Source of the DNA: Yuukianura sp. NJ FZ-2021
Taxonomy: Eukaryota
Assembly: GCA_046563655.1 (NCBI GenBank)
Contig: CM102283.1
Span: 5,642,001 to 5,706,000, forward strand
Length of the DNA stretch: 64,000 nucleotides
Direction of reading: 5' to 3'
This document shows, piece by piece, positions 1,497-31,365 of this stretch. The notes beneath the pieces were generated by a model. The model saw only the letters and a program-made list of their open reading frames with translations, had not been told where the DNA came from and ran no database searches. How positions within the stretch are numbered: position 1 is the stretch's first letter; each line of letters begins with the position of its first letter. Position numbers and translations under genes: made by a program.

Positions 1497-3184
1497 TTAA
1501 ACCGCTTTCCGCACTTCGGGCACCCGAAGCCTGTTGGATCCCCCCTGTGAATTGCTTAAGTCGTGGCGATTGACGCTCTTCGGTGCGGTAAAAGTCGTTG
1601 AGCACTTTTGACATTTGTAGCGGCCGGTCGCTTCATCGACGATCAGCAGAGGATATTTTCGTCTTTTGACAATAGACTCCAATGGATCTCGTTCGTTTTC
1701 ACTGGCATCCAAAGGTGGATCAGCGCGACGTCCTTCGATGGTTCTCGATGTAGCAGAGGTTGACGGAAGAGCGACAGCGAGTGTTTCGACTGAAACTGGT
1801 TCTTCGAGTGGAGGTAACGGCGGGGCTATGTCTGGAGTGAGTGCACGATGCGTAGATGGGTCCAGGATGGTGGCACGTGGTGGAGAATCGGTTGACATGG
1901 CGACGGAGAGATCCAGAACTGGAAGCTGGTCGTTTGGACCAAATAAGCCAACTGCTGGAGGCTCCATTTGAACAGCTGCACCAGATAGAGCCTGTGTATA
2001 TGTCGACTGAAGTCGATCTATTGCCTTTTGCCTCTCTGCTGCCCTCTGCAATCCCTCCTGAAGACTACGAGACGATCCTGGCTGTGGGGATGCAAGAGGT
2101 TCTTGACGACGATTCAGAGAATTCAGACGATCAGGGGAAGATCGAAGATGTAAGAATCGCTGGATCAACGCCTCGTACGCTGTGCGTCGGATGACTTGAT
2201 TCGATTCGGTAGAAGCGGCTGAAATGACAGAAGAAGCAGCGACGTTGGTACTGATTGAATTTTGTTGTGTTAGCATCCGGGATGAATAAGATTTCATTTC
2301 TCGAAAAACCTCCTCCCATCTGTGATTTGCCAATTAAAGGTCATAGGGAAGTCCTTCTTCATTACGTTTTTCACATTCTGCTAAATAGTACCCTGCATCC
2401 ACGTTATACGCAGGGACATATACGAATCTGCAAAGAAAATAATAATAGTCACTGGAAAGACGGGCATCACAATGTACTAAAAAAACACGCGAAAATAAAC
2501 CCAGCCCAACCAACTTTTTTTTTTGAAAAAAAAAAAGCTTATTTAAAAAAAATAAGGGGCGAACTTACCTGTCGGAAACGTACAAAGGTCCGAAATCTAC
2601 TTGGTAGAACTCGTTGCCCTTTTTGTCCTGGACAATTTCTCTAATGCCGACGATATCGTACTCAATACCGTCGATTCCAACAATTCTAGTCCGCTTTAGT
2701 TGAGGTGGACGATAAGGCACAAGATCGTCAGGATCTGCAGGAAGTGACTCTTCGGACTCAGATGACTCACTTGAATCTGACGGTACCCAAATGTTCCCCT
2801 TTCGACGTCGATCCTACAAATCAGAAATTATTCACATGCAGAGATAGTTGAAACCGAGATGAACATAATACACGCTGACTGTTCTGTTAAGTTACCTTTG
2901 TCGAGGAACATCAACTCCTGGTTTTAACAGTGGGGACAACACGACGGCCACGACGCTATACATAAAATAATAATATTAATCTCTGATATTCTGTGTACTG
3001 TATTTACTAATCTTCATAAACACGCAAATCCGCTCAATATTCATAACAAAATAATATCTTCTTAATTTCTAACCAAAAACGAACAAAAGACACACACCTG
3101 ACATGAATCTGGCAAACGAACCTCACCGGCACCAGGAGCAACCTCGTTGATTATATAGGCAACCAAATCCACGCGAGATCTATG
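1497..3184 (-). pseudogene. Spliced chromodomain-like + C-terminal zinc-finger gene, disrupted; its first 13 codons lie at 18547-18509 on the other side of the LTR element
   Basis: Exons 3184-3098, 2955-2896, 2813-2569 and 2427-1497 join in phase through GT-AG introns. The translation contains EYDIVGIREIVQDKKGNEFYQVDFGPLYVSDRFVYVPAYNVDAGYYLAECEKR (chromo-like spacing) and YKCQKCSTTFTAPKSVNRH. In-frame stops at 2913-2911 and 2336-2334. Confidence 0.6.
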
Positions 3185-3189
3185 CTGTA

Positions 3190-4100
3190 TGTTAGTCTAC
3201 TCGGCGGCTAACATTCGGTCTAGGCAAGTCCTGTGTGGCGACTTACCTGAATTCTGGTGGTTCTTTCCTTCTGTCCCCGAAGCCTGTCTGCCACCGAAGT
3301 AGCCGATGGCTCTGAGGTGCTACTGTAGATGGAAGCTCGACTGTATATGATGTTATTATTGACGGTACAAAGTAACGATAAGACGTTAAGACAATAGGAA
3401 CGGTAAGATGTTGAAACAATAAGAACGGTAGTTGGTCATCTACCGAGAGACGAAGCTCTCTGGTCAGAAAGGGAATAAAGTTCACAGAACACAATAGCTT
3501 TGGTTGAGTTACTACTGTTTATTGTTAGTTGAAACACCCTACTCCAAGTGGAGACTTCACCGTGTTATTGTTCTAGAGTCGGAGTTCCGCACACCGGAAC
3601 TCCGACCCTTCGAGACTCTCAGTCTGGGCTTATTGTCCGAAGAACATATGGTTTGTAGACCTAACTATTGTTCTAATCAACTGTAACTAACTGCTAACTA
3701 CTAATGTAGTCTGTCCCTTGAAAGCTGAATACTGGATACTAACTAACTTAGACTAACTACTTACTGACTACTAAAAGGTAGACCCTTAGGATCTGACTCC
3801 TTAATTATGACTGACTCTAACAGAGGTGAATACAAGCTGCTTAAGGGTAAGATGACGCACAAGCTCACAAGAGCGTGCGTCATTGACTTGGATAGGTCCA
3901 CGTGTGTTCACGTGTTAGAACTATGTTACTGCCACGCATGCTACTGCCACTGCTACTGCGTCTTAGAGTTATGAATCATGCACACCTGCTAAGTTTAGGT
4001 TACTGCGACTTACTTATGCTACGACTTAACTTATGTTTAAGAGTTATGCGTCATAAGCGCATTAAAGTGTGAGTGAGATGACCCTGTCATAACGCTCACA
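3190..4100 (-). repeat. 3' LTR (911 bp)
   Basis: Near-identical to 17610-18508: about 8 substitutions and one 12-bp indel by eye. Abuts the PPT. Confidence 0.97.
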
Positions 4101-4112
4101 TACTCTTCTCAC
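4101..4112 (-). other. Polypurine tract
   Basis: Minus strand GTGAGAAGAGTA lies immediately before the TGTGAG start of the 3' LTR. Confidence 0.8.
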
Positions 4113-4174
4113 CACGGTGAAATTCCTGTCAAGGAATTTTGAATAGTTTTTTTTTTGCAAAACTAGATAGTTAC

Positions 4175-7100
4175 TCATTTTCTAGCCTGTCCTTTTTCAC
4201 CTTGTCTTGGGTAAGTTAGGCGTACAATGTCTCCTTTTGTGTAAAGTCTAGACATTCTGAATTTATTGTTGACTTCTTGCGTTTTTTGTTGTTGATCAGA
4301 TATGGCTGATCTGAGTTTTGACCATAAAGTTAGAATATTTTCTTGCTTAATGCGCAGATCTTTATTTTTAATTTCTTTTTGAAACGCATAAGGAAAATTT
4401 GGTTGTCGGTTAAATACCATTGAAAATGAAGAATGGTAATTCAAACTTTTCAAAGGCGTTGTGTTAATGCAAAAGTTAATCATAGGAATAAATTCGGACC
4501 AGTTTGAATGATTTTCGGTAACGTAATTTCTTATGATACTATGCCAAATTTGATGTGTCCTTTCTGACAACGAATTTCCTGTACTATTATAATACATTGT
4601 ATGTGTGATTTGTGTATCAAATATTTTTGAAAATGATTTCAAAAATTCAGACGCGTAATTAGAACCATTGTCAACATAATTGCGTTTTGGAGTTGAAAAT
4701 TTTAATAAAACTTCTTTTTCAAAAAAGTCTGCGATATCTTCTGCTTTTGTAGTTTTTAACGCTTTCAGAATGGTGTATTTAGTCATTAGGGAAACACAAT
4801 TAATTATATATTTGTAACCATTGCTTGAAGGCATAGGTCCACAGAGGTCACTTGCGCACACTTCCATTGGGTAGTTTCCAATTGGAAGTTTTCCTGCTAA
4901 TCCATGAATTTTGCCAAAGTGACGCTTTAATCTGTTACATTCGTCGCAGCTCTGAATGTGTTTAACTAAGTCTTGTTTTTGAGATGGCCAGGCAAACAGC
5001 CTTGACAATTTATTATAACATTTCGTATAACCGCAATGTCCGGAAATTGGAACGTTATGTATTTCATGTAGAATAGATTTGCGCTGCTGTTTAGGAACAA
5101 AAATTCTTGAATAGTTAAGTCTCATGTCGAACAAGATTCCATCTGTGATAACGTACCTTGCTCGTGTATGAATGTCATTTTTAATCCAGTTAGTTCTAAT
5201 TTTGACACATTCTTGATCTACTAACTGTAACGCAGCCCAATCTATTGTATTATCAACGTTATACCATTTTGTAAGTGTCTCCGGATTTTTAATAATGAAG
5301 CAAGCAATAAATAAGCAAGATGAACTGGCTTTCTGGTATTTCTATATCATTAGCTTCTTCTGAAAGAGGATCTCTACTTAGCATATCTGGAAGACCCATG
5401 TTTTTGCCTTTTTTATATTTAATTTCGTAATCGAAACCCATGAGGATTACTGACCATTTCGTTAACTCGTTATTCCAGCGTTTTGAAGGTGATAAAGCAT
5501 TCTTGGTTTGGACTAATGGTAATGAATCTGTTATGATTGTAAATTTAATGTCCATTAAATACAAATGAAAGACGGAACAACAAGTAACTATAGCAAATAA
5601 TTCTCTCATGAATGCTGGGTATTCTTTTTGTTTTCCTTTTAACAAAGATGAATGGTAAGCTATTGGAACTTCTAAGTTTTCATTCGTAGTTTGGAGCAAT
5701 GCTCCCCCTATACCGTAACCACTAGCGTCTGTATATAAGATTGTTGGTCTAGATTTGTCAAACCAATGTAATAATGGCGGTGACGTTAAAATTTCTTTGA
5801 TTTTGTCGATTTGTTGTTCGTGGATTTTTTCTAACTTGAACGCTTTATCTTTCTTTAGAAGTTCGTACAAAGGTTGCGTGAGTAAAGAAAAGTTAGGTAC
5901 ACTTCTTCTAAACCAATTAAATGATCCTAATAATCTTTGAAGTTTCTTAACTGACGTTGGATATGAAATTTGTTGAACTGCTTTCAATTTCTCTGGTTGT
6001 TGTCTAACTCCACTGGTACCTACCAGCATTCCTAATAGAGGTATTTCGGGATATCCGAAGTAGCATTTGTGAATAGCTAACTTTGCATTATATTCCCTTA
6101 ACTTCAAAAAAGTTTTTCGGATATCTTCTAAATGATTTTGCCATGTTCTGCTACTAAATCATCAATGTAAATTATATTATTTACCATTAGCGTTTCACCA
6201 AGAATCCAGTGGTAACAACGGGTAAAACTAGATGGCGCTGTACTAATTCCAAACGGTAAATACGTGAATGCAAAGTTCCCTTTCTGTGTAGAAAACGTTA
6301 AGTATTGGACGCTATCTTCTGCCATCTTAATACTCCAAAATCCTCTTTGTACATCACACATACTAAAGTAATTATGCCTATCTTGGATCCAATCCAAGAC
6401 AGCATCAACACTAATCATAGTGTATTCTACAGGTGCAATCATACTATTAAGTTTCACATAATTGATGCAAAATCTAAAAGTTTTTTCTCCATTTGGTAAA
6501 GTGTGTCCAGGGACTAGTACAGTCGACGACACATAATTTGAATTACATGGTACTATGCGACGTAGCTTTAGTAAGTCGTCAATCGTTTTGTTTTCGAATT
6601 CTGTCATCGCTGGCGTTCTTCTGGCTGGTTGGCACCGAAAAGTAGTTGCGTTTGGACGCAACACTACATGGTGGACGTAATTTTTGATTTCTCCTATCTC
6701 TCTCTTGTACGCAAAAACGTCTGTGAATGACTCTAATAATTGGCGCAAGTCGTCTTGTTTACTTTGTTCTAAATCTGGATTAATCCTTGCTAGGATTCTA
6801 TCCAGGTGTTCTTTACGTAAATTGGAAGGTAAATCGGAAAGTTTGAAAAGTAGGTAGGGTTTCATCTATTTCTGTTTGGTTTTGGTTATGTTCACCTTCA
6901 GTTAGCCCGATTGTGGCAATACTCTTTTCATAAAAACTGGGAGGCAAGACTTCTACCCAGTACTTTTTCGAAAAAGGTTTGTAAAATATATCATCGCCCT
7001 CTATAACGTATTCGCCTGCTATGAAGGGATCTTCCCGGGGACTCTGTTCATTAACAAGTCTATACTGATCTGAGAGAGGGACCAGTGTTTCAGTCAGACC

Positions 7101-8033
7101 AGCATATCCTGTTATAGTTTCATTATTATCATTTTCATCTGTCTGTGTGACAGGTTCTTCTGTAATTTCTATGTAATCATTATCATCCTTTGAATCTGTC
7201 CTTTTGACAGGCTTTGTAATTATATTTTCTAGATTTTGAACGTGTGAGCTCAGATTTTTAAAATCATTTTCTTCGATCCCCGTCGAGACAAAATTAGTGA
7301 TGTCTAAGCTCACATGATCAACAATATTGGATCCATCTGTATTATATATTTCATCATCTGGTTGAATGATTGTGTCATATCCTGCTAAGGTGAATACCTT
7401 GCAATTAATCTTCATGTTCTCTATTACTGTTGGAATTATTTTAATATTTTTTCCGTTCCAACTTATTAATTGACGACTAAAGTCAATTACTATGCCTTGG
7501 CAAACTAGGAAGTCGTTTCCTAGTAAGGCATCTAATGAAAAATTCTCAATTACCACCATCGTATGGCTAACTTCAATCTGGTGAATTTTAATTTTCACCT
7601 CGGACACTCCCAAAGATGAAACAGATGAATTCCCGATTCCTTTTAACGTTATACTATTTTCATTTTGAAAAATATTTTCAGATTTTACTAATTTATTATT
7701 AACTACTGAACATTCTGCGCCTGAATCTAAAATTATGCTAATTTGAAAACCATTTACGTAGCCAACCACCCGAAGCAATCCATTTCTCCCTATGCCACAT
7801 ACAATCTGATAACTATTAAAATTTTGAAAATTGGAAGTGATTATGTTTTGTAAATCTTGTGATGAATTATTTAGGATTGGAGAGGTGGAGTTTGGAAAGT
7901 TGTGTTCAACGAATTGACTAGAGGATTGACTGGGGTTTGATTCTCCTGATTGCGGCCCCGAGTCTGTTGTTGAATCGGATGGAAATTCGCCGCCATTCCC
8001 ATCCTCTCTCCATTTTTTGGTTGCATTCTGCAA
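4175..8033 (-). pseudogene. pol: pol polyprotein (protease, RT, RNase H, integrase), broken by at least three frameshifts
   Basis: PR ILDSGAECS...LLGNDFL (6813-8033). RT FRFCINYVKLN, LPFG, YIDD (6128-6865). RH YTDASGYGIG, RELFAI (5289-6107). INT H..GH..C..C and D,D(35)E (SDLCGP, VDNGSNY, SER) at 4175-5134. The integrase GPY/F tail is missing. Confidence 0.95.
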
Positions 8034-9541
8034 GTAGCGTTGCTATGTGTGTTGGAGTTATGTAGTGAACACCATTCTGCGTTCACTCTGTTAGATGGGT
8101 AGAAAGCTTGTCGATTTTGATTCTGTCCGAATCTTTTTTGATTGAATCTGTTTTGGTTTGCCGCAAAGCGATTCTCATTTCCTGTGAATCGGTTTTGATT
8201 TGGAGTAATTTAATTATGATTCGGTGTGAATCGATTCTGATTTTGTTGAAAGCAATTCGCGTCAGAATGTTCATTTGTTCTGTGAAAAGAACAAAACTGC
8301 TGCGGGCTATTTTGGGCCCTAGATGTTCTACAGTCCGCTGCTAGATGTCCTCTTCGGTTGCAAAGTGTGCAAGTAACATTTTTTGGGCATTGTGCGCTAA
8401 AATGTCCTGGCATGGAAGTGAAAACTGAAGGACAAGTGAAACAAACTCCAGTATTAGGATTTTGTGGTCTTGGTGTATCTTGTCTAATTTGATTTTGACG
8501 TAGCGGCTTTGAATAGCCACCAATTCTGGTATTCACTCCGAATTGTTCGGGAGTTGTGTAATCCGGCGAAGTAGGTATATTTTGTTCCTTATTTTGAATT
8601 TTTTCTGGGGTTTTTTGAACAATCATGACTTCCATACGGTTCATTCTTTCCTGGATGTCATTTATGACGTCTTTTTGTTCAAAAAGCTCTGCGGTAGCTT
8701 GTGTCATGACATTGACATCCTTCTGATGTAATAAGAGTTCATTGGTTTCTTCGATGCTCTTCATTGCTTTCAAAAATTCTGGGATTGTTTCTGGCTTTGT
8801 TGCTCCTAGAGCGCTGATGTTGGAAGGTCTTAAATTTCTAATAAGCCACCTAACTTGGCGGGCTTCAGTGATATTTGGATCCATTTGACGAAGTAAATCC
8901 GTCAGTTCATACACATATGTAGTTGCTGATTCATTCAACATCTGCTTCCTATTGATGACCTTTTGTTCGATGGCCATTGTACTGGATTGTCCAAAGGCCT
9001 TAATGAGTTCTCTTTTGAGTGTAGGATAACCTACCAGTAGTGACTGGCCAGGTGGTTTGTTTGAATCCAAAAATGAACAAAGCCAAGCTTCTGCAGTTCC
9101 AGTAAGAGAGGAACTCAGAATAATAGCCCATTCGGTTTGTGGAATTAAATTCCCAGTCATTGCAAATTGGTATTTAGCAATGAATCGCATGACATCTTCA
9201 TTGGTTTTTCCACTAAACGTCGGAATTTTGATTTTATAATTGATTTTTTGTGTAGGGGGTTTTGACCCCGGGATTGGCATTGCGCCTGATTCATCGCTAT
9301 CTTCTTTCAAACGTTTCTTAGAATTTTCTCCAGGATAGTAAGGTTTGAATAGGTATTCCTCTGGATAATTTGGACTTGTAGGAAGGGGTGGATAGACAGG
9401 AATCGTAATTCTATCTCTCTCCAAACCTTTTACAAGTGGGCTATGTCGTACGTTAATTGGAACCCCATTGTGTTTTTTGTCAACAACACTGTCTAGTGTG
9501 TTGTCTATGTCTTTCTGTTTACTTCTAGTATTCGTAGCCAT
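7871..9541 (-). pseudogene. gag: gag, one in-frame TAA at 8212-8210
   Basis: IPTFSG...LTGTAEAW...RKQMLNESATTY capsid-type motifs and knuckle CTLCNRRGHLAADC. ORF 7871-8086 is in the same frame as 8210-9541 and the interval is open. Confidence 0.9.
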
Positions 9542-12500
9542 TTTAATTGACCAATAAACTGTTAAAAAAAACTGTTTGTTAACAAAATAAAAGTCTTACC
9601 TTTAATTGACTTTCTCACGTAGATATGAACAGTGATTCCCCTTGGTTAAAGTTGACAGCTATTTTTACCACTTGGGTTGGGAACTAAAAGCTCTCTTCTT
9701 CTCCGATGTAGATGATAACGAAGGACCGACTCAACCAAACTCAAACTATCAATGTTTCCACTTTGGTTTTTTAAGAATTTTCGTTGATTTAAAAATATTG
9801 AAATTGAATAACGTTAAACAACACAAGTTGAAGTTAAAGTTTGATGGGTAGATTTCTTATTTAAAACTCAAATCAAGAAAAAAAATTTTTTTGAAAACAA
9901 TTTGTTCACCAAAAAATTTTTTTTGTTTTTAACGAATAGTGTTAGTAAGTCTTAACTGACACTAGAATCAAAATAAACTACCGTATTTATAGTAAAGTGC
10001 ACTCAGTTTGTCTTTTTTAAGGCATTTTAGTTCGCATTGATTTTGTTGACGAACCCTTTTCAATTGCGCAATTTTGTAACCAGTCATAGAGAATTTTAAC
10101 GTGTTTCTTTTTTGAAAAATGAATTTTTGTGTTATTTCTGAACACGCTAGTTCATTCCAAATAAAATGTATTGTAACTTCTCATGTACCTTCAACTCACC
10201 TGAAAAAACATAAAGTGAGGAGTTTTTACTTCTATTATTGATTATCAGTAAAAGATTACTAAACACATTTGAAGTGTACCAAGCTTTAAAATTTTGTTTT
10301 ATATCTTATTTTATGATCATAAGGTGCAGTATATTCTCGACAAAAAAAATAGATGAGTGTAATTGATACTCGTAAGTAGAGATTTAATCTGCGGAAATTC
10401 CAAAACGGATTAGAAATTTTCCTTTTAAACTACTCTTCTTTAGTAGCGCCTTTTTTCTAATTTGATTTTAGTTATTTTGCATTAATTAAAATATCCTTTA
10501 CTAAGATCTCTGATTGGGAATTCATTCTTAAAACCTGAATTTCTTTCAGTGACCTTGACAACGCCAAAATTATGGAACGTCTCTTATGGAACTTCTAAGT
10601 TTAAAACTCAGATTTTTAGAAAGCTCAACCTTGTTTCAAGTTATTTTTTGATGAAAACTTCGGAATAGAATCATTTATATTCCAATGTTTAATTTTATAT
10701 AAAAGTTATTGTAAACTTAGTGCCTTAATTCTGTGCGAATGTTCTTGTTTTACTCCTCAGCTATGATTTTTTGATTATTGAAAAATTTCGCTCACCTAGG
10801 GAAAGAAATTCCAAAAAGAATCGAATTCCGTGTCTTCAAAACTTTTTTACATTCCATCAAACGTATAACAGAACTGAAATTCTGGTGCTTTCCCTTCACA
10901 CTAGATAACTCGCCGTACTTGAAAATGAAGCTCTCCCAGTGTTCAGCCATCACTTAAACTTGCTAAACCTTCCAACAATTTCCACTTTCGACTTGCAAAA
11001 TTTCACTCTTTTCTTTTAAAGATTGCTGTCCGAAAATTGTTGCTATTTTTTTAGACAAATGTTTGGAGTCACCCGGAATATGTTTGTTACTTGGCTCAAC
11101 TACTCAAGTTGTTGTTAGGATCGTGACTGACTTTCTTTCTCGAATTGAAAGGCCTTTGGTGTTTCGAATTTTTTTTTCAGAAATGCTGACTTAGCGTGGG
11201 TGGGTGGACTTACGGGGTGCGCGTACCAATCAAAATTGAGCAGCAGTACTGAGGCCATGTGTTGGAATCGTGGTTTTTAGGATTCGCACTTTTTCCCATG
11301 TCAAAAGTTCAAGACATAGTCGTAAATCTCTTAATCTTCTGGCCTCAAAAAAATGCTTTTTCCTTATGGTGCCCATAAGGAATCCCAACGGTCACTTTTT
11401 GACAGATGTGACCTTTCCCTGATCCCGGATTTTAATTTTGCAAAATAAGAGAACAACAATTTTAATCTTAACTGGCCTTAACCAGTTTTAACTTTTAATA
11501 AAATTTTCTGAAAAAATTAATTTAAAAAATTTTCCATCTTTATTAGTTACCTATTCTACCTGAGCGATTGTATACTATATAGCTTTTGTGTCTGTCTGTC
11601 CGTCGGCCTGTCACTCATCAGATTATGAATTTTAATTTTAATTTTACCAAAAAATTTTAATAAAAACTACTTTGTTGTTGTATATGTCTGTCTGTTCGTC
11701 TGTCTGTCTGTCTGTATCTCTGACTACTTTTGATCATGAATATACTCAAATTCGAAAATGGGTTTAATTTAGTAGCTTTGACCTTGCTTATTTATTTCTC
11801 ATAAGAATATTCTAAAAATTATATGTGTTTGGGTCAAAGGTCAATAGTAACGTTTTCTTTCCTATATAAACATGGAATTTGACCAATACGAAAGTTGTTG
11901 GTCACAACTAATCAAGCATCCTTTGTATAGGTGTTTCCTATCTAAAGTTAAATGCTTCGTGGTCGAAACTAAGAATTTCGAAAATTAATTATTTTTAAAT
12001 TTTTATCACAATTTTGAATTTTCTGCTAAATTTCTTACTGTTCACATTAAGTTCAACTTATTCTGGCATATATTAAGTAAAAATTTAAATTATTAAGAGA
12101 TGAGTTATCTTTCAGTACTTATGGTACGTCGTTTTCAGTCAGCTGTTTCGTATTTCAAAATTTCGCGCAAAATTTTCAAAATTTTGGTTTTATTGATCAA
12201 AAACCCATCATTACGTTATTTGGTTATGACCCTTTCAGGTAATTGCAAGTTGAGTCATGTATTTTTCCAAAAAAGTTCAAAATTTTTGCACTTTTGGAAT
12301 TAGATTTTGGAAATACCGTTAATCTTCTTTTAGTGGTCGGTATGTTATGGGTAATGAATTCTAATGGTCCTTGCTTTGTTTACTTCTTGAAATGTTTATA
12401 AAATTGATGTTATAGCTAACTAATATTAAGTATAGTATTCTTATGATTTGTTCAAGTTAATTTGAACTTGAGTTTTTTAGTTTAAAAATACCGTAAATAT

Positions 12501-14598
12501 TCAATTTTTCATTCAATCAAAAAATCAATCAATCAATCAATCAATTCAATCAAAAAAGTGCTAATTTTTCTATAAAACTGGCTTGTCGTAAAGTGAATCC
12601 TACTTATATGCTGATAGCTAATACTTCTCTTTGAGAGTTTTGCGGTATTCGTGAAATTTACAGTTTTTCCTCTCTGTAAATTACGTTTATGAAATTTTTT
12701 TGTTCCAAACCTAATTGTTAGTGTAAGATTTAATGTAGTTAATCTACTTCCCTAGTAATTTTTTAGAAAAATTGATTTTGTTACTGGTTTAAATATGGGC
12801 AAAAGAATTACGTGCCATCGCCTAGTACAGGAAACTTTACGGTAAAATTTCGAAAAATTTGCAAAAATTCGGATTTTTTTTGACGGATTTTTATTTTTCG
12901 GTTATTTTGCTAACTTTTTCCTTGCTTTTCATCCAACAAAGTGGATTTTAAGCTTGAATATAATTTCGAAAAGAATTTCAAGCCAAGAACTTCCATCGTC
13001 ATAGATTTCACAAGTCAACTTCTTGTGCTGACTACCTTCGACTCGACTCTTGTTGACATTTGGCCTTCTATATGTTGTTTTTCCAGATTTGGCATCTGGA
13101 CAAATTTGTCTTGACCTCTGCCAACGCTATGCAGATTCCTGACCTACGTTTGCAAAACTTAGTGAGGGGGTGAGAGGACTATCTCTAATTTTTAAATTGT
13201 AAAATTTTTATTCTATTTAGAGTTCCGCTTCGAATTATTATTTTCACTCAGCTTTACGCCATTTACCTAAGTGGACCTTTAAAGGGCTCTTTCGAGACAG
13301 GTCCTTCTGTGACCTTTTGAAACAGCGGCCATAGTGAAAAAAAATTTTTTTTTACAATTTTGTGTACGATGTCATTTTTTCAAAGAATTTACGGTATTGA
13401 CCCTATTGTGATTTGAATTCTGTTTTAGAGTTTTGACCCAGCATTATAGCTACCTATTGTGAAGTGTCATAAAAATTCTTGGATCGTCTAAAAGGTGCTA
13501 AAAGTTCCGTTTAAGTGCCCCAAGTCTACCTGTTCAAGTCGAAGTCTCAAATCTGTTCGGTTCTTACAGACTAAAAAAGGACCCCTGGGGTTTTTGGAAA
13601 TTCACATCGGGATCATCGAGATAGTGAGTCTCTCAACCTGTTTTCCACTTTCTCTTTTTATATTATTGCCATGAGTGGGTTGTGGCAAGTTTCAAGCAGT
13701 GAACATTTCACAAGTCCCATTCCCATGCTTTCTCCTGTATTGAAAATTTTCTAAGTATTTTGGTCAAAGTTGACCTCTGACAACCTCAAAAACGATCCCT
13801 ATGAAAATTGTTGAGGGTCATGAGTGGAACATTTTTTGTTCTATAACGTACTACTCTGTGACCTTTCCCCGAGGTCACAGGTCAATCCAAAGAATTTTTC
13901 CGTCGCACTCTTTTAAGCTACTATAATGTCCCCTCAAAATCGGTTCAAATTCGAAGTTTGTTTTTACTGCACAAAAATACCTTAAGTGCAATAAAACTGC
14001 TGTGTGACTTTTAATTTTATTTTTTGTACTTAACTAAGTCTGAGTGAGAGTAATGAATCTGAATTATGATTTTTTCGTAAAATGCTAAAGATTTTCGTGA
14101 ATTTTGATTTCCAAGCATTAGTTAGAACGGTCATAATTCTGAAATTCAGAATTGTCTGTTATAACTTCATTTTTGTGTTTTCTTTTTACAGAGTGAAAGA
14201 TAACCTCAACTTGCACTTTAAAATCTTGAACTTGTCGATTTGCAAGTGTGTGCTTTTTGGGACCAGCTACTTCCGATTTATATAGTGAGTATTTAAGTAA
14301 AATTTTTGCAAATTTCTTACTTATGAAATTTTGGCTTTTCAAATTAAGCATTTCGTCAAGTCCTTTGTGACACAAAGTTATTTTACGTTGTTAACTGCTT
14401 CATGGAGATGCAGTTGGGGAATTTGTTAATCTATAATCTGCTGTTTCCAAAAAAAAAATTTTTTTTTTCAAATTTCAAATGTTTCTTGTAAAACATCTTT
14501 CTATTGGTTGCTTTCAGCCCTATAGTCAAGTATTAAGAAGCCCAGACACAACAACAAAAAAAAATTTTTTATTTTATAGTCCTACTTTTGTCTAAAGA

Positions 14599-15468
14599 AT
14601 GACAGAACGGGAGTTCAGTTCGTGTGAATTCACTCCTTATTCGGATTATAATTTTGAGTCTGCTTGTGGGTACTTCAATCGACTTATTTTACGTCATTTG
14701 CCTTTCTCCCTTGACATTGAGGAAGAAGAAAGGAGGGAATTATTTCAACATTTACCGCGATATTTTGAAAATGAAGAGGCCGCGGCTTACGAGCATCCCT
14801 TGTTCAACTTGCCGTATTGCGTTTGTAAACAAATTGCTTCTTATTTAAATTATGACGATGTTCTCAAAATAGCGCATTTCTTTCCAATTTTTCAACATTA
14901 TAATCAAACAAATTCAAACTTAGCTACCACTCAGGGTGAACTTTTTGATTTGGGGATGTCTAGTGACTTAGATGTTTATGGCCCTCCAGGTTTGTCGTAT
15001 GTTTCGCGCTGTTTGAGATCAATTGCCTTAGGCAGTTTTCCTATTTCAATTTTAGATTTCTTGTCATATACTCCTGATATTACTATTAATTTAAATTTTT
15101 TAGAAAATTTTATGGGATTATCTGATTTCCGAAAATTATTGTCAAATAGTCATGTTTGTCGGGGGAACGGGGCTAAGGACCGTTTGATTCATGTTACCTC
15201 AGTGCCTCGTTATGCTAGGTTAGAATATGATAACTATCGATTAGTATTAGCTATGATTAGACGTAATCGATTAGATTTAGCTGTTGATTTTATGGTTTCT
15301 GAACCATTTGGAAATGAGCTTCACTATGATTTTAACGAAATTTCATTATTTATCGTAATTTATGAGGCTATTATGCATCGTCGCTTAAGAGAACTTAGAA
15401 GGAGCGTTCTTGAATTTTTGAATCGGCCTTATACTGAGGAAGACTTAGAAAATGTTATAGTTATTTAA
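14599..15468 (+). CDS. Intact 289-aa antisense cargo ORF inside the LTR element, F-box-like motif
   Basis: Uninterrupted ATG-TAA in very AT-rich DNA. HPLFNLPYCVCKQIASYLNYDDVLKI matches F-box spacing (LxxLP...IxxYL..D...). AATAAA at ~15520. Confidence 0.75.
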   Translation: MTEREFSSCEFTPYSDYNFESACGYFNRLILRHLPFSLDIEEEERRELFQHLPRYFENEEAAAYEHPLFNLPYCVCKQIASYLNYDDVLKIAHFFPIFQHYNQTNSNLATTQGELFDLGMSSDLDVYGPPGLSYVSRCLRSIALGSFPISILDFLSYTPDITINLNFLENFMGLSDFRKLLSNSHVCRGNGAKDRLIHVTSVPRYARLEYDNYRLVLAMIRRNRLDLAVDFMVSEPFGNELHYDFNEISLFIVIYEAIMHRRLRELRRSVLEFLNRPYTEEDLENVIVI

Positions 15469-15774
15469 TGTAATCATACATATTTTGTAAAATTTCCTAT
15501 AGGAGCAATCAATTTTTGAAATAAAATCAGTTAGTTATTGTTTATGAATTTAGCGCTTTGTAATTTTTTAGAAAGTTTTGGATTTTTCTGTCGTCTGTTT
15601 TTCTGAATATGCAACCAATCTCTTGTGATGTAAAAATAGTATGGAACTTTACATGTACGTACGTACACTAATGTACAGAATTTTTATTATTTTTATTTAA
15701 AAATAGTAACTTTTTATTTTCAGTTTTTAATTTTTCAATTTTTTGTTTGAATTTTCTTGATAGATTTTAAAATC

Positions 15775-17339
15775 ATGGGAAGACATAGAAAAGTTCCTCG
15801 GAAATCAGTTCCTCGGAAAATCAGGCGTCATTCCGATTCTCGTGTTAACCAGTCTCCATGTTCTACCTCTACACGTTCTAGTACAATCACTTCCTCGATT
15901 TCTGTTCCTTTAAAACGTTTGCCACTCCGTACTAACTTGACTAAATCATCCACTACTATTACTGTTTCGGGCTCTCCTATTTCTTCCATTTCTAAATCTG
16001 CAAACAGCGTTTTTTGGAAAGTAGGAAAATGACACTAACGACGACTTGGTTTACTATCGGTGTGACTTTCTGGCTGGAAATACTGTTCTGTTCATTTAAC
16101 AAATGTAAAAAAAGCGAAATTGCGACAAAGGCTATACTCCCATAAGAAAAGGAGTCTCAAAAAAAGATCCTCGCTCCCTCCTTCCCTCATTGAGAAAAGA
16201 GGGAGTTTCCTTCCTGACACCTGGTCTTTCCAAAAACTATTCGAAATTAGAGTTTGCGCGGCAAGCACATGTTAACATCGTTAAATTATTGTACAAATTA
16301 CTCCAATGATAATGGAATACTACAATAAATCTGCATAAATTACTTTTAGAGTTGATTTAATTGTGCGTCCAACAATTTAATCGTTGCAACATGTGCTTGC
16401 CGCGCAACATCTAATTTCAGAGGTTTTTCGGAAAGGCCAGGTGTCAGGAAAGAAGTTCCCTCTTTTCTCAATGACGGAGAGAGGAAACAAGGATCTTTTT
16501 TTGTGACATTTTTTTCTTATGGGAGTATAACCTTTGTCGCAATTTGGCTTTTTTTACATTTGTTAAATGAACGGAACAGTAACTCAACACCTGAAATTTT
16601 AGGTGTTCCTAAATTTCTTGATTATGGTCTTCCTGGCTACCTACGTTGTGAAAAGATTCATGTTCCTGGAAATTTTTATTGTGGTGCTTGTGAGTCGGAA
16701 TTTTACGCTCGTACTCGTAGTGTTCTCAAGCGGGATGTAGGAAGTATGGCTTCTTCTCCGCTGATTTTTACATCGAATGACCCCTGGGTCACGCATGTTA
16801 ACGAAAAACATTTGAAACAAGTTCGTGTTCGACAACCATGCGGGTGTAATAGACTAGCCGGAGTGGCTCTAAATGAGTTACATCGCTATTCCTGTATATC
16901 GCCTTGCCTGTGTGGCCTCAAAGTTACCACAGTAAGTATTTTTAAGATATTATGCGCAAATCACCTCTATATCTGCAAAATATTTACTTGGATTTTCTAA
17001 TTCATTTTTCCCAGGTCAAAGAAAAAGAAGATCACTGCCTCAATTCGAGAAATCCCTCGATCAAGAAACGCGGTTGTTATTACGATTCCACTTGTGGGAA
17101 ATATTTCCCCACCCAAATGAAATTATACACGCACTTAAAAAATAAGTGCACTCGTTGTCACCTATGTCAGGAGATCATAGATAGTTCAGTAGAAACTAGA
17201 ACTGAACAATCAGTGCTTCTATTGTTCCTTTTGTGGTACTCCACAAGACTCCCGGGAAGCCATGCACAATTGCGCCTTAAGTTGTCTGCGACGCGTTGTG
17301 TACGTCAACCAAAATGAATGTGAGCCCAGGCCTTCTTGA
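15775..17339 (+). pseudogene. Antisense spliced Cys/His-rich (zinc-finger-like) cargo gene, interrupted by a MITE
   Basis: Basic/Ser-rich N-terminus, then a 1-nt shift in the A-run at ~16030. The frame is restored across the MITE (…CDFLAGN|NSTPEILG…). Phase-0 GTAAGT…CCCAG intron 16932-17014 joins two ORFs. Contains CGKYFPTQMKLYTHLKNKCTRCHLC and a shifted CFYCSFC tail. Confidence 0.65.
16083..16579. mobile_element. Foldback MITE with ~200-bp imperfect inverted arms, TA target duplication (Tc1/mariner-type)
   Basis: TA|CTGTTCTGTTCATTTAACAAATG… mirrors …CATTTGTTAAATGAACGGAACAG|TA. Removing it plus one TA restores the flanking reading frame. Confidence 0.9.
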
Positions 17340-17588
17340 TTTAAAATTTTGTTTTATGATTTGGAACTATTTTATTATGTTTAGTGGAAACATTAGTTGA
17401 GTTTGGTTCGAGTACTTATGTAAGTTGTTTAGCTTACAAGTTGAATTGACTCTAGTTATAATTCTTATTGGTGCATAATTTTGAAATTCCCTATTGTACT
17501 TTGTGCTTCATTACTATATTAAAAAAAATTTTGTTTTTACTTACCTTATTGTAGCTTCTGACAATAATTTTCAAGTAGCGAAGAAGGA

Positions 17589-17606
17589 ATCCGGTTCGAA
17601 GGACCA
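17589..17606 (-). other. Primer-binding site, tRNA-Tyr type
   Basis: Minus strand TGGTCCTTCGAACCGGAT, 3 nt inside the 5' LTR, is complementary to the ...CCGGCTCGAAGGACCA 3' end of eukaryotic tRNA-Tyr (one mismatch). Confidence 0.85.
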
Positions 17607-17609
17607 AAT

Positions 17610-18508
17610 TGTTAGTCTACTCGGCGGCTAACATTCGGTCTAGGCAAGTCCTGTGTGGCGACTTACCTGAATTCTGGTGGTTCTTTCCTTCTGTCCCCGA
17701 AGCCTGTCTGCCACCGAAGTAGCCGATGGCTCTGAGGTGCTACTGTAGATGGAAGCTCGACTGTATATGATGTTATCATTGACGGTACAACGTAACGATA
17801 AGACGTTAAGACAATAGGAACGGTAAGATGTTGAAACAATAAGAACGGTAGTTGGTCATCTACCGAGAGACGAAGCTCTCTGGTCAGAATGGGAATAAAG
17901 TTCACAGAACACAATAGCTTTGGTTGAGTTACTACTGTTTATTGTTAGTTGAAACACCCTACTCCAAGTGGAGACTTCACCGTGTTATTGTTCTAGAGTC
18001 GGAGTTCCGCACACCGGAACTCCGACCCTTCGAGACTCTCAGTCTGGGCTTATTGTCCGAAGAACATATTGTTTGTAGACCTAACTATTGTTCTAGTCAA
18101 CTGTAACTAACTGCTAACTACTAATGTAGTCTGTCCCTTGAAAGCTGAATACTGGATACTAACTAACTTAGACTAACTACTTACTGACTACTAAAAGGTA
18201 GACCCTTAGGATCTGACTCCTTAATTATGACTGACTCTAACAGAGGTGAATACAAGCTGCTTAAGGGTAAGATGACGCACAAGCTCACAAGAGCGTGCGT
18301 CATTGACTTGGATAGGTCCACGTGTGTTCACGTGTTAGAACTATGTTACTGCCACGTAGGCTACTGCGTCTTAGAGTTATGAATCATGCACACCTGCAAA
18401 GTTTAGGTTACTGCGACTTACTTATGCTACGACTTAACTTATGTTTAAGAGTTATGCGTCATAAGCGCATTAAAGTGTGAGTGAGATGACCCTGTCATAA
18501 CGCTCACA
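17610..18508 (-). repeat. 5' LTR (899 bp)
   Basis: Direct repeat of 3190-4100; followed on the minus strand by the PBS. Confidence 0.97.
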
Positions 18509-18765
18509 CTGTACAACTGGCGCTGATTCGCAAAAAATCTTTACCATTGTAACTTTTTTTATTGATAACTCAAAAACTATTACAAAAAACAACCACGAAA
18601 GACTCAAACAACCAAAACACTAAAACTCAAATCCAAACTTTCCACCCTTCCCGCCAACTGGGAGGAAGGGACACCACGCCATCCTCTTATCCACACGAGA
18701 AGGGGTGAAGAAACAGCACAACACAGAACAATAGCGATTAATCGATCCAAAAAAAATCAATAATC

Positions 18766-19897
18766 TCATAAGAGTAGTCCACATAGTCTGCTAACTAACA
18801 GCACACATAAGCACGCCACTAAAAATCCAACAAACGCTACACACAATTTTTCAAAACTTTCCACCCTCCCACCAAAATCAAAATCCACCCTAGAATCCTC
18901 CCCTCTGAAGAAGAGGACGCCACGCCATCCTCTTATCCACACGAGATAGGGCGAGGGCACACTCCAATCCAAAACAATAGTGTCTAATCGATCAATAAAT
19001 TCACCGTTCTGATGGACATAGTCTACTAACTCAGAAGCAACTAAAAGTTTCTCCCCTTTCAGTATATCCTTCTTTGCTACCACCTTCACGACTGCCTTTC
19101 CATGCCTAGTACCTTTCAGGAAAATTATGTATTGCTTTTCCTGGTTACAAGTGTGATTGATGAAGGGTGCGATGTTTCCACGCGTAGTACCATCGACAAA
19201 CAGACGTTCCTCATCACGACTGACCGAATTTCCAAGTGACGTTACAAGCGACGTGAATAACTTGACTGAGCTATACGCAGAATCGAAAAACATAAATTTT
19301 TAACATTAATTCACTTTTAAAAAAATAAAAAAAACGCTATAAAACCAATATACATTTCATTAGACAAAGACAACTTATCAGTAGTTAGACTCAGTTTGGT
19401 TTGTAGATCGATAACTTGTCCAGCGTACAAAAACAAGAAATCTCCGGCAGATAAGTTCCGCATTGCTTTCAAGCCCAGCCCACCTACTGTTTCCTCATAA
19501 TAGCAATAACAGGAGTTCACTAGGTCCGCTTTTCCCCAGGTCACGATTTGATCATCATAATATACTCCACTAGTTGGTGTAAATCTAGTTCGTAGATTGT
19601 TCAACATAGGGAAGACAGCAGTATCGTCTTTGTAATACGGAAAACCGAACTTATTCATCTGAAAGACGTGAGACATTATGGATCTATATAGAATGTTATG
19701 AATAATTCAACGGATTCGGTATTTTATAATACTCACCACGAATTAATCTCACACAGCTAGAAACATAGGACAACCCTGGTGGGCTATATACATCTAAGTC
19801 GCTGGACATCCCTTGATCAAAAAATTTACCTTGAGTAGTGGCTACGTTTAAATTAGACTGATTATAATGGCAAATCGAACAAGGGGTGCTCGTAAGC
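18766..19897 (-). pseudogene. SET-domain gene with F-box-ORF-related N-terminus, spliced and decayed
   Basis: SET motifs GGLGLKAMRNLSAGDFLFLYAGQVI, VDGTTRGNIAPFINHTC and VVAKKDILKGEKL. An in-phase GT-AG intron at 19353-19271 joins the two SET halves. A second candidate intron (19736-19684) is out of phase. The N-terminus is homologous to 14785-15025. Confidence 0.8.
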
Positions 19898-28127: not shown

Positions 28128-28758
28128 GTGTCACCTAGAGTGTCACCTTTCTTCCTAATGTACGGTCGAGAAGCTAAACTACCAGCTTTAGCGCTACTCC
28201 CGGAATATACGGCATGCCAAGAGGTCGAAGACCTTCAGAAGAGGATTTCTGAGGCCAGACTGCTAGCGAAAGCACACATCGAGGAGGAGCAAGAAAAATA
28301 CGCCAATAGGGTCAACTCAAAATTGACGCCGCCTCCGGAGTTTGAAATTGGATCCGAAGTCGTCATTCGAAAATTTGCAAAGACTTTCAGTTAAACTCAT
28401 GGAGTACTTCAGTGGACCCTACAGGGTGATGGAAAAGAGGTCACCAGTTAACTATGTCGTGGAATATGGAGATGGTAAGACGAAACATCGCAAAACTGTC
28501 CACGTCGACAAAATGAAACCATATTCAAGAAGGGAATAAAATGAATTGCATTCTGTCCAACCTAATCAGGCCAACAATTCCGTTTGCAATGCTCAAGGAA
28601 CATCGGAAAATCTAAAAACTCCGAACGAGACAAATTCCAAAAAATTGCCGAAGAGAGGCAAGAAGGAGCATATTTCAACGCCAGTGGAAGCTTCAGAGGA
28701 ACCTCAGTGTCGTTATAACTTGCGCAGCAGAAGACCTAATCAAACCCAAGCACAATAA
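28128..28758 (+). pseudogene. pol: Gypsy integrase C-terminal fragment
   Basis: SPFFLMYGRE…FEIGSEVVIR, frameshift, then FSGPYRVMEKRSPVNY…VHVDKMKPY (GPY/F motif). After an in-frame stop comes an RYNLR tail. Confidence 0.9.
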
Positions 28759-28832
28759 AATCAACAAGTACAAAAATCTTCAAATCGAATTCGAATCAAT
28801 TTTCTAAATCACGAAATTTGGAAATTCAAGAA

Positions 28833-31365
28833 ATGAATCGGCCAACCAGGTTTGGGAGTTTTGAAGGGACCAGGCGTAGAACGGAAGGCAACTCATCCGG
28901 GGAAGAAAGTGGACCACCAAGGGACGATCCACCGGCTTACGAGGACGAGGGACTCTACGTCCCTCCTCACCGGAGAAGTGTAATTGGATCTGGACGTGAA
29001 GGTGGGCGTGTAGTACGACGTCCAGTGCGTGACAATTTAGTGATTGTGAGTGGACCGCAAGGTCGGAGAGTGATCCGTACACCGGGCCGAGTGCCGTGCC
29101 AGGTACATTCGGAAAACCGGGAGCGGACCGAAAGAGCCGGGTACCGGACGTGGTACTTACGACTCGGACCAGGACGACGGATGAAGGCAAGAAACTGCTT
29201 CAATCACTGGATGCGTGAAGGAGCCCCCAAATGTAAGAAACATGATAAGTTTGTTTGTTGGCATTGCCACAATTGGAAAAAGTTATCACCGGAGGAAAGA
29301 AAGGCGGCCGCCGAAGCAAGACGTAGCGGTCCCGGAAATCCTCGTACCCCACAAACGGAGAAGTCGACCTCCGGAAGTGGAGGGTCATGGAGCCGCTACT
29401 TCCTAGCACTATTCCTCGTGCTGACACTGTTGGCGACGATGATCGCAGGAGCCAGCGGTGGAGAAATGGAACTCAAGCTTTCCAACGGAATTCTAAAGAA
29501 AAAATTGAGCGCCTGGGGATACGAAGAGTCGTTCCCCCTCATATTTGACATGGATCTTCCCGGGAATCAAGAGTTCAACTTTAAAGAAAAACCCGAGGAT
29601 CCACTCCAGAAGCAAATTCAAGAAGCCATGCAGCAAATGAATCCCTGGATGAGGTCTTTGAACCCACACTTGGAAGAAACGGAAGCTCGGTCTAAACGAC
29701 AACTGAACTTCATAGGCGATTTCTACCATTGGTGTTGCGGGGTAGTCGCCCATGATCAATTAACAGAAATCCAACAAGAAGACAGAAGATTGGAGACGAT
29801 GGCGGCAAATTTCAAGAGCAATTTGGACCAAGATCACGCTGACATTGTACGAGTAATGCAGATTGTCAACAACTACAGTGCCAATGTGGATTTTGTGATG
29901 TCCCAAGAACAAGAAATGACCAGGAAGAACACAGTCAGACTTGTCAAGGACAACGAAGCTCTGGCAACAACTCTGACCCACCATAGCAAAAATTTCATTA
30001 CCATGTTTACGGCCCTTCAGAAGGTCATCACCACTGGAACTTGGAGAACCAGCATCTTGGAATGCAGGGAGGGGTACATTCCTAACCTTCTAGTGACCCC
30101 AGAAATCCTGGAAGCGGAGCTGGCGATATTGGCTACTAAGGTCAAGGCATTCAACTTGGAGCCCATCATAAGCAGTGACCACGCCCACCTTTACTACGAA
30201 CTTAAAATAGCCAAGTGCTCCTATTCAAAAACGAAACTTGTAATAACAATCCGAGTTCCGCTGAAACCAACCGGAAGCAGCTACGAGTTCTACGAGTTGA
30301 ACCCCACACCGTACTTGCTTCGGGGAAGCATTTGTCAACTAAATCTTGAGGTGACTAGAGTGGTAAAATCCAGCAACGGATTAATCCCACTACCGGAATC
30401 TCAGAGGAGTGGGTGCGATATCCCTAAGGATCGGTTGTGCCACGTTCCAGTGGCCCCACCAAGAATGAATCAACCCAGTTGCATCGCTGCCCTCATGCAG
30501 GAACAATCAAACTACACTGACATCAACCGGAAGTGCCTAGTTAAGTGCGAGGACCACGATGGAGCGACAAGAGTGACAGCGGCCGCACGAAACGCCTACG
30601 CCATCATCAATACAAACGAAACTTTAATCATCAAGTGCCCCGATTCGGCGGAGGACATCGAGAGGATGGGAGATGTGGGAGTTAGGTTTGTCAAATTGAA
30701 ATGCCACTGCGAGGTTTTCGGTGGTAACGGGAAGAAACTAATTCCGGCCCACTTTCCCTGTCCGGCAACAGAATCAAACAACTCAATCCATCACGAAATC
30801 CCAGGGATCTGGTCGAAGGCAATGGATACAGGAGTCAGGGACCTGACTCACGAAAATCTCACCGATATCCTGGATGAGGACTGGCATCATCACATTAATC
30901 ACCTAAACATGACCTCAAGCCCACCACCATGCCAGTGACAGTGGATTCCATTCCATACTTTGAGGCCACCACGCACTACGCGATTCTTGGAAATGTGATC
31001 AATCTCGTATTAATCCTGTGGGGGGTATGGGTGACGTGGATGTTGCTCAAACCTAATTGGATGGGCCTCCTAGCCGCTCTCCCTGGGGTCAGGGGTCATT
31101 CGGACGACACCCACCTGGCTGTGGAGATTGCGGATGACCTCATCTTAATCCTCATTTGGACGACTATGGTACTCTGTTTCATCATCCTGTTCATTTTGGA
31201 AATCTAAGAAACAAAAGAAGGAGCGGAGTTCGAGAGGCCCCACCACCGCCATCGGCCCCACCGGTCCGATACCGGCCGAGGACACATAATCCGGCTTTGA
31301 CACAGTCCCAACCGAATTTAAACCGAACCATCGTTATAACAGAAGAAGACGACCTCATCTATTGA
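28833..31365 (+). CDS. env: Envelope/fusion glycoprotein-like ORF, two frameshifts near the 3' end (~30930, ~31200)
   Basis: Internal signal-like segment YFLALFLVLTLLATMIAGASG. Furin site RSKR followed by QLNFIGDFYHWCCGV (fusion-peptide-like). Heptad region, Cys-rich region, NxS/T sites, and TM segments in the 30929-31207 frame. Located between integrase and PPT. Confidence 0.85.

Follow-up and report, generated by a model that had tools for sequence, protein, structure and literature searches.

The stretch analysed here (the window) comprises 64,000 nucleotides of Yuukianura sp. NJ FZ-2021 (assembly GCA_046563655.1, contig CM102283.1, positions 5,642,001 to 5,706,000), and all positions below count from its first letter. 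Positions 3190–18508 (15,319 bp) are occupied by a single minus-strand Ty3/gypsy long terminal repeat (LTR) retrotransposon, in which a leader holding predicted genes on the opposite strand separates gag from the 5′ LTR (Table 1). The structure had been called in an earlier note made from the sequence of the window, and was confirmed; the strand was corrected to minus, and the decay of pol and a miniature inverted-repeat transposable element (MITE) in the leader were newly added.

Table 1. Features of the element and of its flank, in window coordinates (TSD, target-site duplication; PBS, primer-binding site; ORF, open reading frame; aa, amino acids).
Feature	Position	Strand	Details
TSD, left copy	3185–3189		CTGTA
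3′ LTR	3190–4100	-	911 bp, TG..CA
Polypurine tract	4101–4113	-	sense GGTGAGAAGAGTA; abuts 3′ LTR
Integrase ORF piece	4175–5341	-	Integrase_H2C2 E 1.9e-15; rve under Pfam cut-off; frame 2
Reverse transcriptase C-terminal part and RNase H ORF piece	5289–6158	-	RT_RNaseH_2 E 1.4e-26; frame unlike either neighbour
Reverse transcriptase ORF piece	6128–6865	-	RVT_1 positions 8–157 of 205 only
Aspartic protease ORF piece	6813–8042	-	Pfam
gag	8210–9541	-	Retrotrans_gag and CCHC knuckle (Pfam); ATG 9541, stop 8210–8212
Two acceptor-like sites (putative)	9559–9572	-	T-rich tract and CAG; end 17 and 30 nt before gag ATG
Leader ("cargo") region	9542–17609	-	8,068 nt, 5′ LTR to gag ATG; GC 0.33; plus-strand AT skew −0.12
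Antisense ORF1	14599–15468	+	289 aa, intact, orphan
Small antisense ORF	15775–16032	+	85 aa; basic N-terminus, Ser/Thr-rich; no Pfam match
Foldback MITE	16083–16579		497 bp; TA duplication 16081–82 / 16580–81
Cys-rich gene, exon 1 (predicted)	16581–16931	+	open part past MITE; 8 Cys in 117 aa; 5′ end undefined
Predicted antisense intron	16932–17014	+	83 nt, GTAAGT..CCCAG, phase 0; joins both ORFs in frame
Cys-rich gene, exon 2 (predicted)	17015–17317	+	C2HC-like finger; ATTAAA at 17518
Consensus splice donor	17539–17547	-	AAG|GTAAGT (sense); 65 nt past 5′ LTR
PBS-like stretch	17587–17606	-	begins TGG; 3 nt past 5′ LTR
5′ LTR	17610–18508	-	899 bp, TG..CA
TSD, right copy	18509–18513		CTGTA
ORF1-paralogous piece, outside element	19741–19897	-	ORF1 residues 63–72 and 100–142; in or next to SET-domain gene exon

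Boundaries, insertion site and coding capacity

The LTR pair is clear, and a direct-repeat scan of positions 1–25000 returned the LTRs as the only large direct repeats involving the element. Between them are 8 mismatches and a single 12-bp indel; identity is 97.8% across the 911 alignment columns, or 99.1% if only aligned bases are counted, and at the latter figure the earlier description of the pair as near-identical is fair. The 5-bp TSD on both sides and the purine tract adjoining the 3′ LTR were likewise found as described. To call the PBS unambiguous was too strong, as the stretch that begins with TGG 3 nt past the 5′ LTR was matched to no tRNA, the 64-kb window containing 0 tRNA genes.

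Public contigs (Logan) from four sequencing runs (X1 to X4) were compared with positions 2500–19500 of the window; the pieces were at most 1.3 kb long, and 32 of the 1,955 were shown. A joint running directly from 3185 to 18510 was present in three of the four runs (X1 and X4 from organism A, X3 from organism B; two studies), with none listed for X2. The 15,324 bases passed over at the joint add up to the element and one of the two CTGTA copies, the other copy being kept; the joint is the precise pre-insertion empty site, and a solo LTR is excluded. Because the TSD copies match and the empty site is present, the outer ends of the element come from one integration event. At 3058–3136 the only X1 contig among the pieces shown was the empty-site one. 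The insertion is recent, polymorphic and younger than the split between organisms A and B, whose flanks are about 4% apart (25 differences in 602 bases). Of the recent move as one unit suggested in the earlier note, the part supported here is that the whole 15.3 kb forms a single polymorphic insertion with a precise empty site; the copy is by now defective.

Contigs in X1 and X4 also join the LTR end to a position outside the element (joint 4100 to 18665), and another LTR copy may lie elsewhere beside a repeat of the type found at 18669–18753. In the window that repeat forms an 85-nt direct pair (18669–18753 and 18915–18999, 79% alike) just outside the 5′ LTR.

The gag frame was recognised by Pfam through Retrotrans_gag (25.3 bits, cut-off 24.1) and zf-CCHC (22.3 bits, cut-off 20.8). 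From 8042 down to 4175, the minus-strand order of Pfam domains is protease, reverse transcriptase, RNase H and integrase, and the last place of integrase in pol assigns the element to Ty3/gypsy; the best PDB relative of the reverse transcriptase/RNase H piece was yeast Ty3 (4ol8, E 1.4e-29), and 75 nt separate the end of integrase from the 3′ LTR. At least three frame changes break the pol region into four pieces, which occupy two frames in turn and overlap at 6813–6865, 6128–6158 and 5289–5341. With pol split into four pieces and a stop after gag, this copy is defective and at present non-autonomous. If indels accrued neutrally since insertion at the pace indicated by the LTR pair (one in 0.9 kb), roughly the number present here, about three in 5.4 kb, would be expected. 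Past the gag stop, the gag frame stays open for another 112 aa (8209–7874, minus strand) before the protease frame, an arrangement that could reflect stop read-through or a nonsense change.

Searches with these proteins returned 0 homologues of gag in a near-length sequence search and 0 confirmed among 537 metagenome-contig pattern matches, and for the RNase H piece 0 of 9 pattern matches in viral contigs were confirmed. ESM Atlas matches of the RNase H piece confirmed RT_RNaseH families and indicated no host clade.

The leader and its antisense genes

As the earlier note had it, gag begins about 8 kb downstream of the PBS, its ATG (9541) being 8,068 nt away from the 5′ LTR, and at least two genes lie on the opposite strand in the interval, one with an intron: these are ORF1 and a predicted two-exon Cys-rich gene, both on the plus strand.

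The stop-free run of ORF1 extends over 290 codons, compared with a maximum of 198 across 300 shuffles of the leader, and an AATAAA lies 52 nt past its stop. Homologues of ORF1 numbered 0 in a word-indexed search of 5.8 billion clusters and 0 at E ≤0.001 in a HMMER search of 1.84 billion representatives; the best ESM Atlas score was 0.86, below the 0.9 level taken as a lead, none of 94 pattern matches in metagenome contigs or of 7 in viral contigs was confirmed, and no Pfam family scored above cut-off (an F-box-like stretch had E 0.51). Since gag too is without homologues, the clade is poorly covered in databases, and the orphan status of the leader ORFs weighs little. Two further analyses were set aside: an AlphaFold2 model of ORF1 made without an alignment had a mean pLDDT (model confidence) of 37.9 and was unusable for fold comparison, and log-odds scoring of codon usage was discarded because it favours every frame free of stops, even that of a random small ORF, and so says nothing about the ORFs.

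A paralogue of part of ORF1 lies 1.2 kb outside the element, with 77–90% amino-acid identity (E 4.8e-17), and was the only match of the leader to the rest of the window by tblastx. Over 43 codons, the synonymous divergence (dS) between the two is 0.78 and the ratio of nonsynonymous to synonymous divergence (dN/dS) is 0.14 (Fisher p 1e-5). These values point to old paralogy of a real coding domain and not to a recent copy. The paralogous piece falls in the region of a host gene with a SET domain (18766–19897, minus strand; Pfam SET E 5.7e-6), which lies shortly beyond the 5′ LTR and has putative introns of about 78 nt.

In the Cys-rich gene, the first 55 aa of exon 2 contain 6 Cys, and a putative frame break is located near 17190–17215. 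The predicted 83-nt intron resembles the putative 78-nt intron of the neighbouring host gene. Relatives from one sample (S1) carry two 1-nt insertions, after 16941 and after 16982; both fall inside the predicted intron, which fits non-coding sequence there. Exon 1 had 0 matches in a sequence search, and for exon 2 the best Pfam hit was zf-C2H2_4, at E 0.033 under the cut-off, with nothing below E 0.4 in a PDB search. The small ORF at 15775–16032 may be a candidate 5′ exon of this gene. Judged by the length of ORF1, its selected domain, the canonical intron and the placement of indels within that intron, the predicted antisense genes look real.

In composition and strand bias, the leader matches gag-pol and is unlike the sampled host DNA, which favours a long stay within the element. 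All 2-kb intervals between 4 and 16 kb have GC of 0.32–0.37 and plus-strand AT skew of −0.11 to −0.17, compared with GC of about 0.40 and skew of about 0 in the host flanks. At 1-kb resolution, plus-strand AT skew was −0.07 or lower in 8 of 8 leader intervals (GC 0.28–0.38) and 5 of 5 gag-pol intervals, and only 1 of 45 host intervals combined such skew with GC of 0.35 or lower (host mean GC 0.40, mean skew −0.016, standard deviation 0.098). The L1 distance between trinucleotide profiles, measured from the non-coding leader (9596–14598), was 0.236 to gag-pol in sense orientation, 0.396 when flipped and 0.29–0.31 to host DNA.

Between 9.6 and 14.5 kb, a stretch of about 5 kb contains short high-copy repeats and microsatellites, and neither strand has an ORF above 90 aa there; on the minus (sense) strand, the leader as a whole has no ORF above 90 aa. 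Twenty further leader ORFs of at least 60 aa gave nothing above the Pfam cut-off (best E 0.0066, 15.8 bits, cut-off 25.2). Rfam returned 0 matches, and comparison of the leader with phage records gave no match.

A TSD or terminal inverted repeats belonging to the block itself had been named in the earlier note as marks of a later nested insertion. None was found around the 8-kb block, direct- and inverted-repeat scans of the leader showing no large terminal repeats besides those of the MITE, which alone bears such marks; no match to the LTR or gag-pol turned up when the leader was compared with them by sensitive blastn, and the sole self-match was the MITE. Its arms, complementary at 96% over the outer 70 nt and at 80% over 148 nt, make up the leader's one genuine inverted repeat. 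Contig depth over the MITE (in Logan contigs, depth is not copy number) was about 2,300, roughly 20 times the value of about 100 in the flank, with variable flanks and loose contig ends at 16081 and 16581. The MITE belongs to a high-copy family, provisionally Tc1/mariner-like, the superfamily name being taken from the TA duplication alone. In organism B, a contig of 447 nt matches the MITE in all but 1 letter, with the unique flanks of organisms A and B about 4% apart; the family is very young or well conserved.

Other dispersed repeats in the leader reach depths of about 10,000 at 11572–12138 and about 900 at 13273–13839, compared with about 100 in the flank, and loose contig ends fall within leader repeats at 12288, 12860, 13812 and 13854. 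Tracts of the form A{6,}T{6,} occur five times in the 64-kb window, all in the leader (9878, 9911, 13337, 14449 and 14556), and the reverse form T{6,}A{6,} occurs 0 times; two pairs of these tracts make small palindromes, and the last (14556) lies about 30 nt before the ORF1 ATG.

Origin of the leader block

The 8.07-kb leader was probably already present in the RNA and cDNA that integrated at this site, the block having been co-mobilised with the element and not added later; that it is an old trait of the family is put forward tentatively. Of the cargo-carrying lineage proposed in the earlier note, what stands is the one insertion, the composition match and the presence of relatives of both parts in another sample, with co-mobilisation the step that we infer.

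If the block was co-mobilised, the leader would be an accessory region with at least two host-type antisense genes, namely the intact orphan ORF1 and the two-exon Cys-rich (zinc-finger-like) gene, within which the MITE and simple repeats would have accreted. The intron, promoters and poly(A) signals of these genes would go unread on the element's own transcript, and for that reason the genes would pass the RNA stage and reverse transcription unchanged. The earlier argument that antisense orientation spares the intron holds up as reasoning, and the one intron predicted here agrees with it. Such a lineage would need its proteins in trans, or would splice the leader out from a donor just past the PBS to an acceptor just before gag.

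The sense strand of the leader contains 98 ATGs and 29 AATAAA or ATTAAA motifs before gag, and with 98 upstream ATGs, Gag should not be reachable by scanning on unspliced RNA. The 9-mer AAGGTAAGT is present as a single copy on both strands of the 64-kb window, in the element's sense strand, and AGGTAAGT has three of its four window copies on that strand. AGGTAAGT also recurs at the same place in both LTRs (17668 and 3248, minus strand), 59 nt before the inner end in the 5′ LTR, where it makes a second donor-like site upstream of the PBS. As evidence for a leader intron, the arrangement of the retrovirus-like donor and the acceptors (Table 1) is suggestive only. That the whole leader is a spliceable intron holding an 8-kb "cargo bay", with spliced RNA as gag-pol mRNA and unspliced RNA as the genome carrying the antisense genes, is regarded as improbable, and the length of the introns seen in the window, about 80 nt, argues against it.

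Relatives of the leader were screened by matching its sampled 31-mers against public runs. Run X1 contained 0.57 of them, where 0.53 is expected from a copy 2% diverged. Among the pieces shown, X1 and X2 contigs of about 96–98% identity lie on both gag-pol (12 differences at 4176–4860, 6 at 6714–7146, 15 at 8217–8781 and 48 at 7478–8781) and the leader genes (11 at 14498–15029, 15 at 15017–15398 and 39 at 17030–17561). Within ORF1, 3 variant positions could be seen. Contigs differ from the window at 44 of 2,215 positions and the LTRs from each other at 8 of 899 (Fisher p 0.03), a divergence that suggests a sibling separated before this insertion. Organism B, with its empty site, has contigs of 95–98% identity on ORF1 (14878–15086), on other leader pieces and on the LTR. 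In X1, contigs give depth in 30 of 30 bins, and outside repeats the depth is 120–450 in the leader and 104–201 in gag-pol.

Two patterns in these data were considered and rejected. Near-zero gag-pol depth in X3 and X4 with several leader pieces covered, which could be taken as a leader without gag-pol in X3 and as absence of both in X4, was discounted because the host flank bin 18943–19500 is uncovered as well. The joints 2530 to 12264, 2552 to 7811, 7836 to 14553, 9900 to 12264 and 15734 to 2520 were not accepted as deletion derivatives; most of them touch A/T runs, their sides were short, and they were taken for low-complexity artefacts.

Several points weigh against co-mobilisation. In no other copy do the contigs (at most 1.3 kb) link the leader to gag-pol or the LTR, and the contigs of about 98% identity may have separate sources, the leader ones deriving from a host locus and the gag-pol ones from siblings that have no leader. 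The test of sibling against LTR divergence is weak (p 0.03) and uses only the contigs shown, and the match in composition may be coincidence, the host DNA available to compare being gene-rich and just 45 kb in all. The ORF1 paralogue in the nearby host gene, the MITE and the microsatellites make the leader resemble ordinary host intergenic DNA. As to the genes, the Cys-rich one is without a defined start, is interrupted by the MITE in its 5′ part and has a possible frame break, and neither it nor ORF1 has a database homologue.

A one-off transduction would be a special case of co-mobilisation and is included in its probability: read-through or a template switch would have fused host DNA (two genes and repeats) between the PBS and gag, as a passenger without a role that integrated once or a few times. 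We hold this to be possible, though doubtful. The ORF1 domain under selection is common to the host SET-domain gene, the intron of the Cys-rich gene is host-like, and the block contains a MITE and microsatellites; organism B has leader-like contigs despite its empty site, and these could mark the source locus. According to PMC7264820, a transduced gene is found in a single copy, or a few copies, of an LTR element such as Bs1, and is usually sense; the latter speaks against transduction here. It is also opposed by the GC content and strand bias of the leader, which match gag-pol and not sampled host DNA, and by the dS of 0.78, at which the only host paralogue seen is not the source.

Growth after integration, in which an element of about 7 kb inserted and 8 kb later accrued in its leader through one or several insertions or break-repair filler, with the antisense orientation incidental, is judged unlikely. 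One nested insertion is certain, the MITE with its TA duplication, parts of the leader are dispersed high-copy repeats, and time has elapsed, with the LTRs 0.9% and an indel apart and at least three frame changes in pol. Besides the MITE, however, no terminal repeats, no poly(A) tail with a duplication and no transposon domain bound a unit in the block. All of the extra DNA would have to have hit a leader of a few hundred bases and none of it the 7.2 kb of gag-pol and LTRs, and the block has the strand-specific composition of gag-pol and, outside repeats, about the same depth as gag-pol in X1.

An assembly artefact, with the internal region a chimaera of two loci or copies joined within repeats, is very improbable: high-copy leader repeats would let assemblers switch paths and contigs cover 1.3 kb of the element at most, but the two outer ends match, sharing their 5-bp duplication and a precise empty site, X1 gives depth in every bin, and composition is uniform from 4 to 16 kb.

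Related elements, the rest of the window and significance

Legume Ogre elements, likewise gypsy elements of giant size, carry an additional ORF ahead of gag as well as a spliced intron. Both follow the sense of the element, unlike the antisense genes and predicted intron described here. Antisense-intron indicator cassettes such as Ty1his3-AI are engineered, and their intron, lying in the sense of the element, is removed. The likeness lies in an antisense gene handled by splicing apart from the element transcript; the difference is that the predicted intron here is natural and in the sense of its gene, antisense to the element, and should be retained.

That extra ORFs in LTR elements are usually sense, the premise on which the earlier note had based the novelty of this arrangement, was overstated, as antisense extra ORFs are known in Grande, RIRE2, Retand and Boty (PMC7264820; PMC11963269). 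These sources report extra ORFs upstream or downstream of gag-pol in either orientation. Grande (gene23), RIRE2, Retand (TRP28 ORFs) and PvRetro13 are plant Tat-lineage elements with antisense additional ORFs (PMC7264820; PMC11963269), and such plant regions often hold orphans, sometimes transcripts from their own promoter, and tandem repeats (same sources). They share with the present element a long internal region outside gag-pol with ORFs antisense to it, and differ from it in position and size, theirs lying between pol and the 3′ LTR and measuring 2.9–6.6 kb, and the one here lying between PBS and gag and measuring 8.07 kb. Retand differs further in its domain content, the leader genes here having no TRP28 or other Pfam domain. 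Conservation of the antisense ORFs across copies is established in the four plant elements according to the available text; here relatives of ORF1 are found in two organisms. An intron in the plant antisense ORFs is nowhere noted in that text, the word "intron" occurring 0 times in the available part of PMC7264820.

Outside plants, Boty-like elements of Botrytis cinerea resemble the present one as gypsy elements with an antisense gene (brtn), and are known here through their mention in PMC7264820. The resemblance to transduced host genes of the Bs1 type lies in host sequence between LTRs, which is typically confined to a single copy or a few; the difference is that they are usually sense (PMC7264820), whereas the genes here are antisense, with one predicted intron kept and 5 kb of non-coding DNA carried along. 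Transduced genes passing through spliced RNA would be expected to lack introns. The LTR elements of bdelloid rotifers are comparable as a case of modular gain of unrelated extra ORFs (ORF3) in an animal (PMC5408684); those ORF3s are in sense and after pol, many with recognisable enzymatic domains. What is distinctive here is the position between PBS and gag, the 8-kb size and the predicted intron-bearing antisense gene. The combination of the three was not found in titles and abstracts returned by a word-matching full-text search.

Elsewhere in the window, a tandem array of an 18-nt unit (918–1258) contains about 19 units, 61–91% alike in register, and lies outside ORFs of at least 150 aa. Two ORF pieces that overlap each other make up a catalase gene (39918–41698, minus strand; Pfam Catalase E 6.7e-90 and 7.9e-31), with mammalian catalases as the closest solved relatives. 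A 732-aa open frame at 28740–30938 (plus strand) has no Pfam match and an A-rich coding strand (AT skew +0.23).

Were the block post-insertion junk or a dead-end capture, the locus would be an ordinary decaying, polymorphic gypsy copy. If the block was co-mobilised, an LTR retrotransposon would carry kilobases of foreign DNA and an intron-containing gene through RNA by antisense placement, with the accessory region 5′ of gag and not after pol, which raises the question of how Gag is translated past 98 ATGs and 29 poly(A)-like signals. Should the leader-intron reading prove true, the LTR retrotransposon would be a vehicle duplicating whole genes with their introns and promoters. Co-mobilisation would in either case amount to RNA-mediated gene duplication that keeps introns and promoters, where retrocopies are normally recognised by the loss of both.

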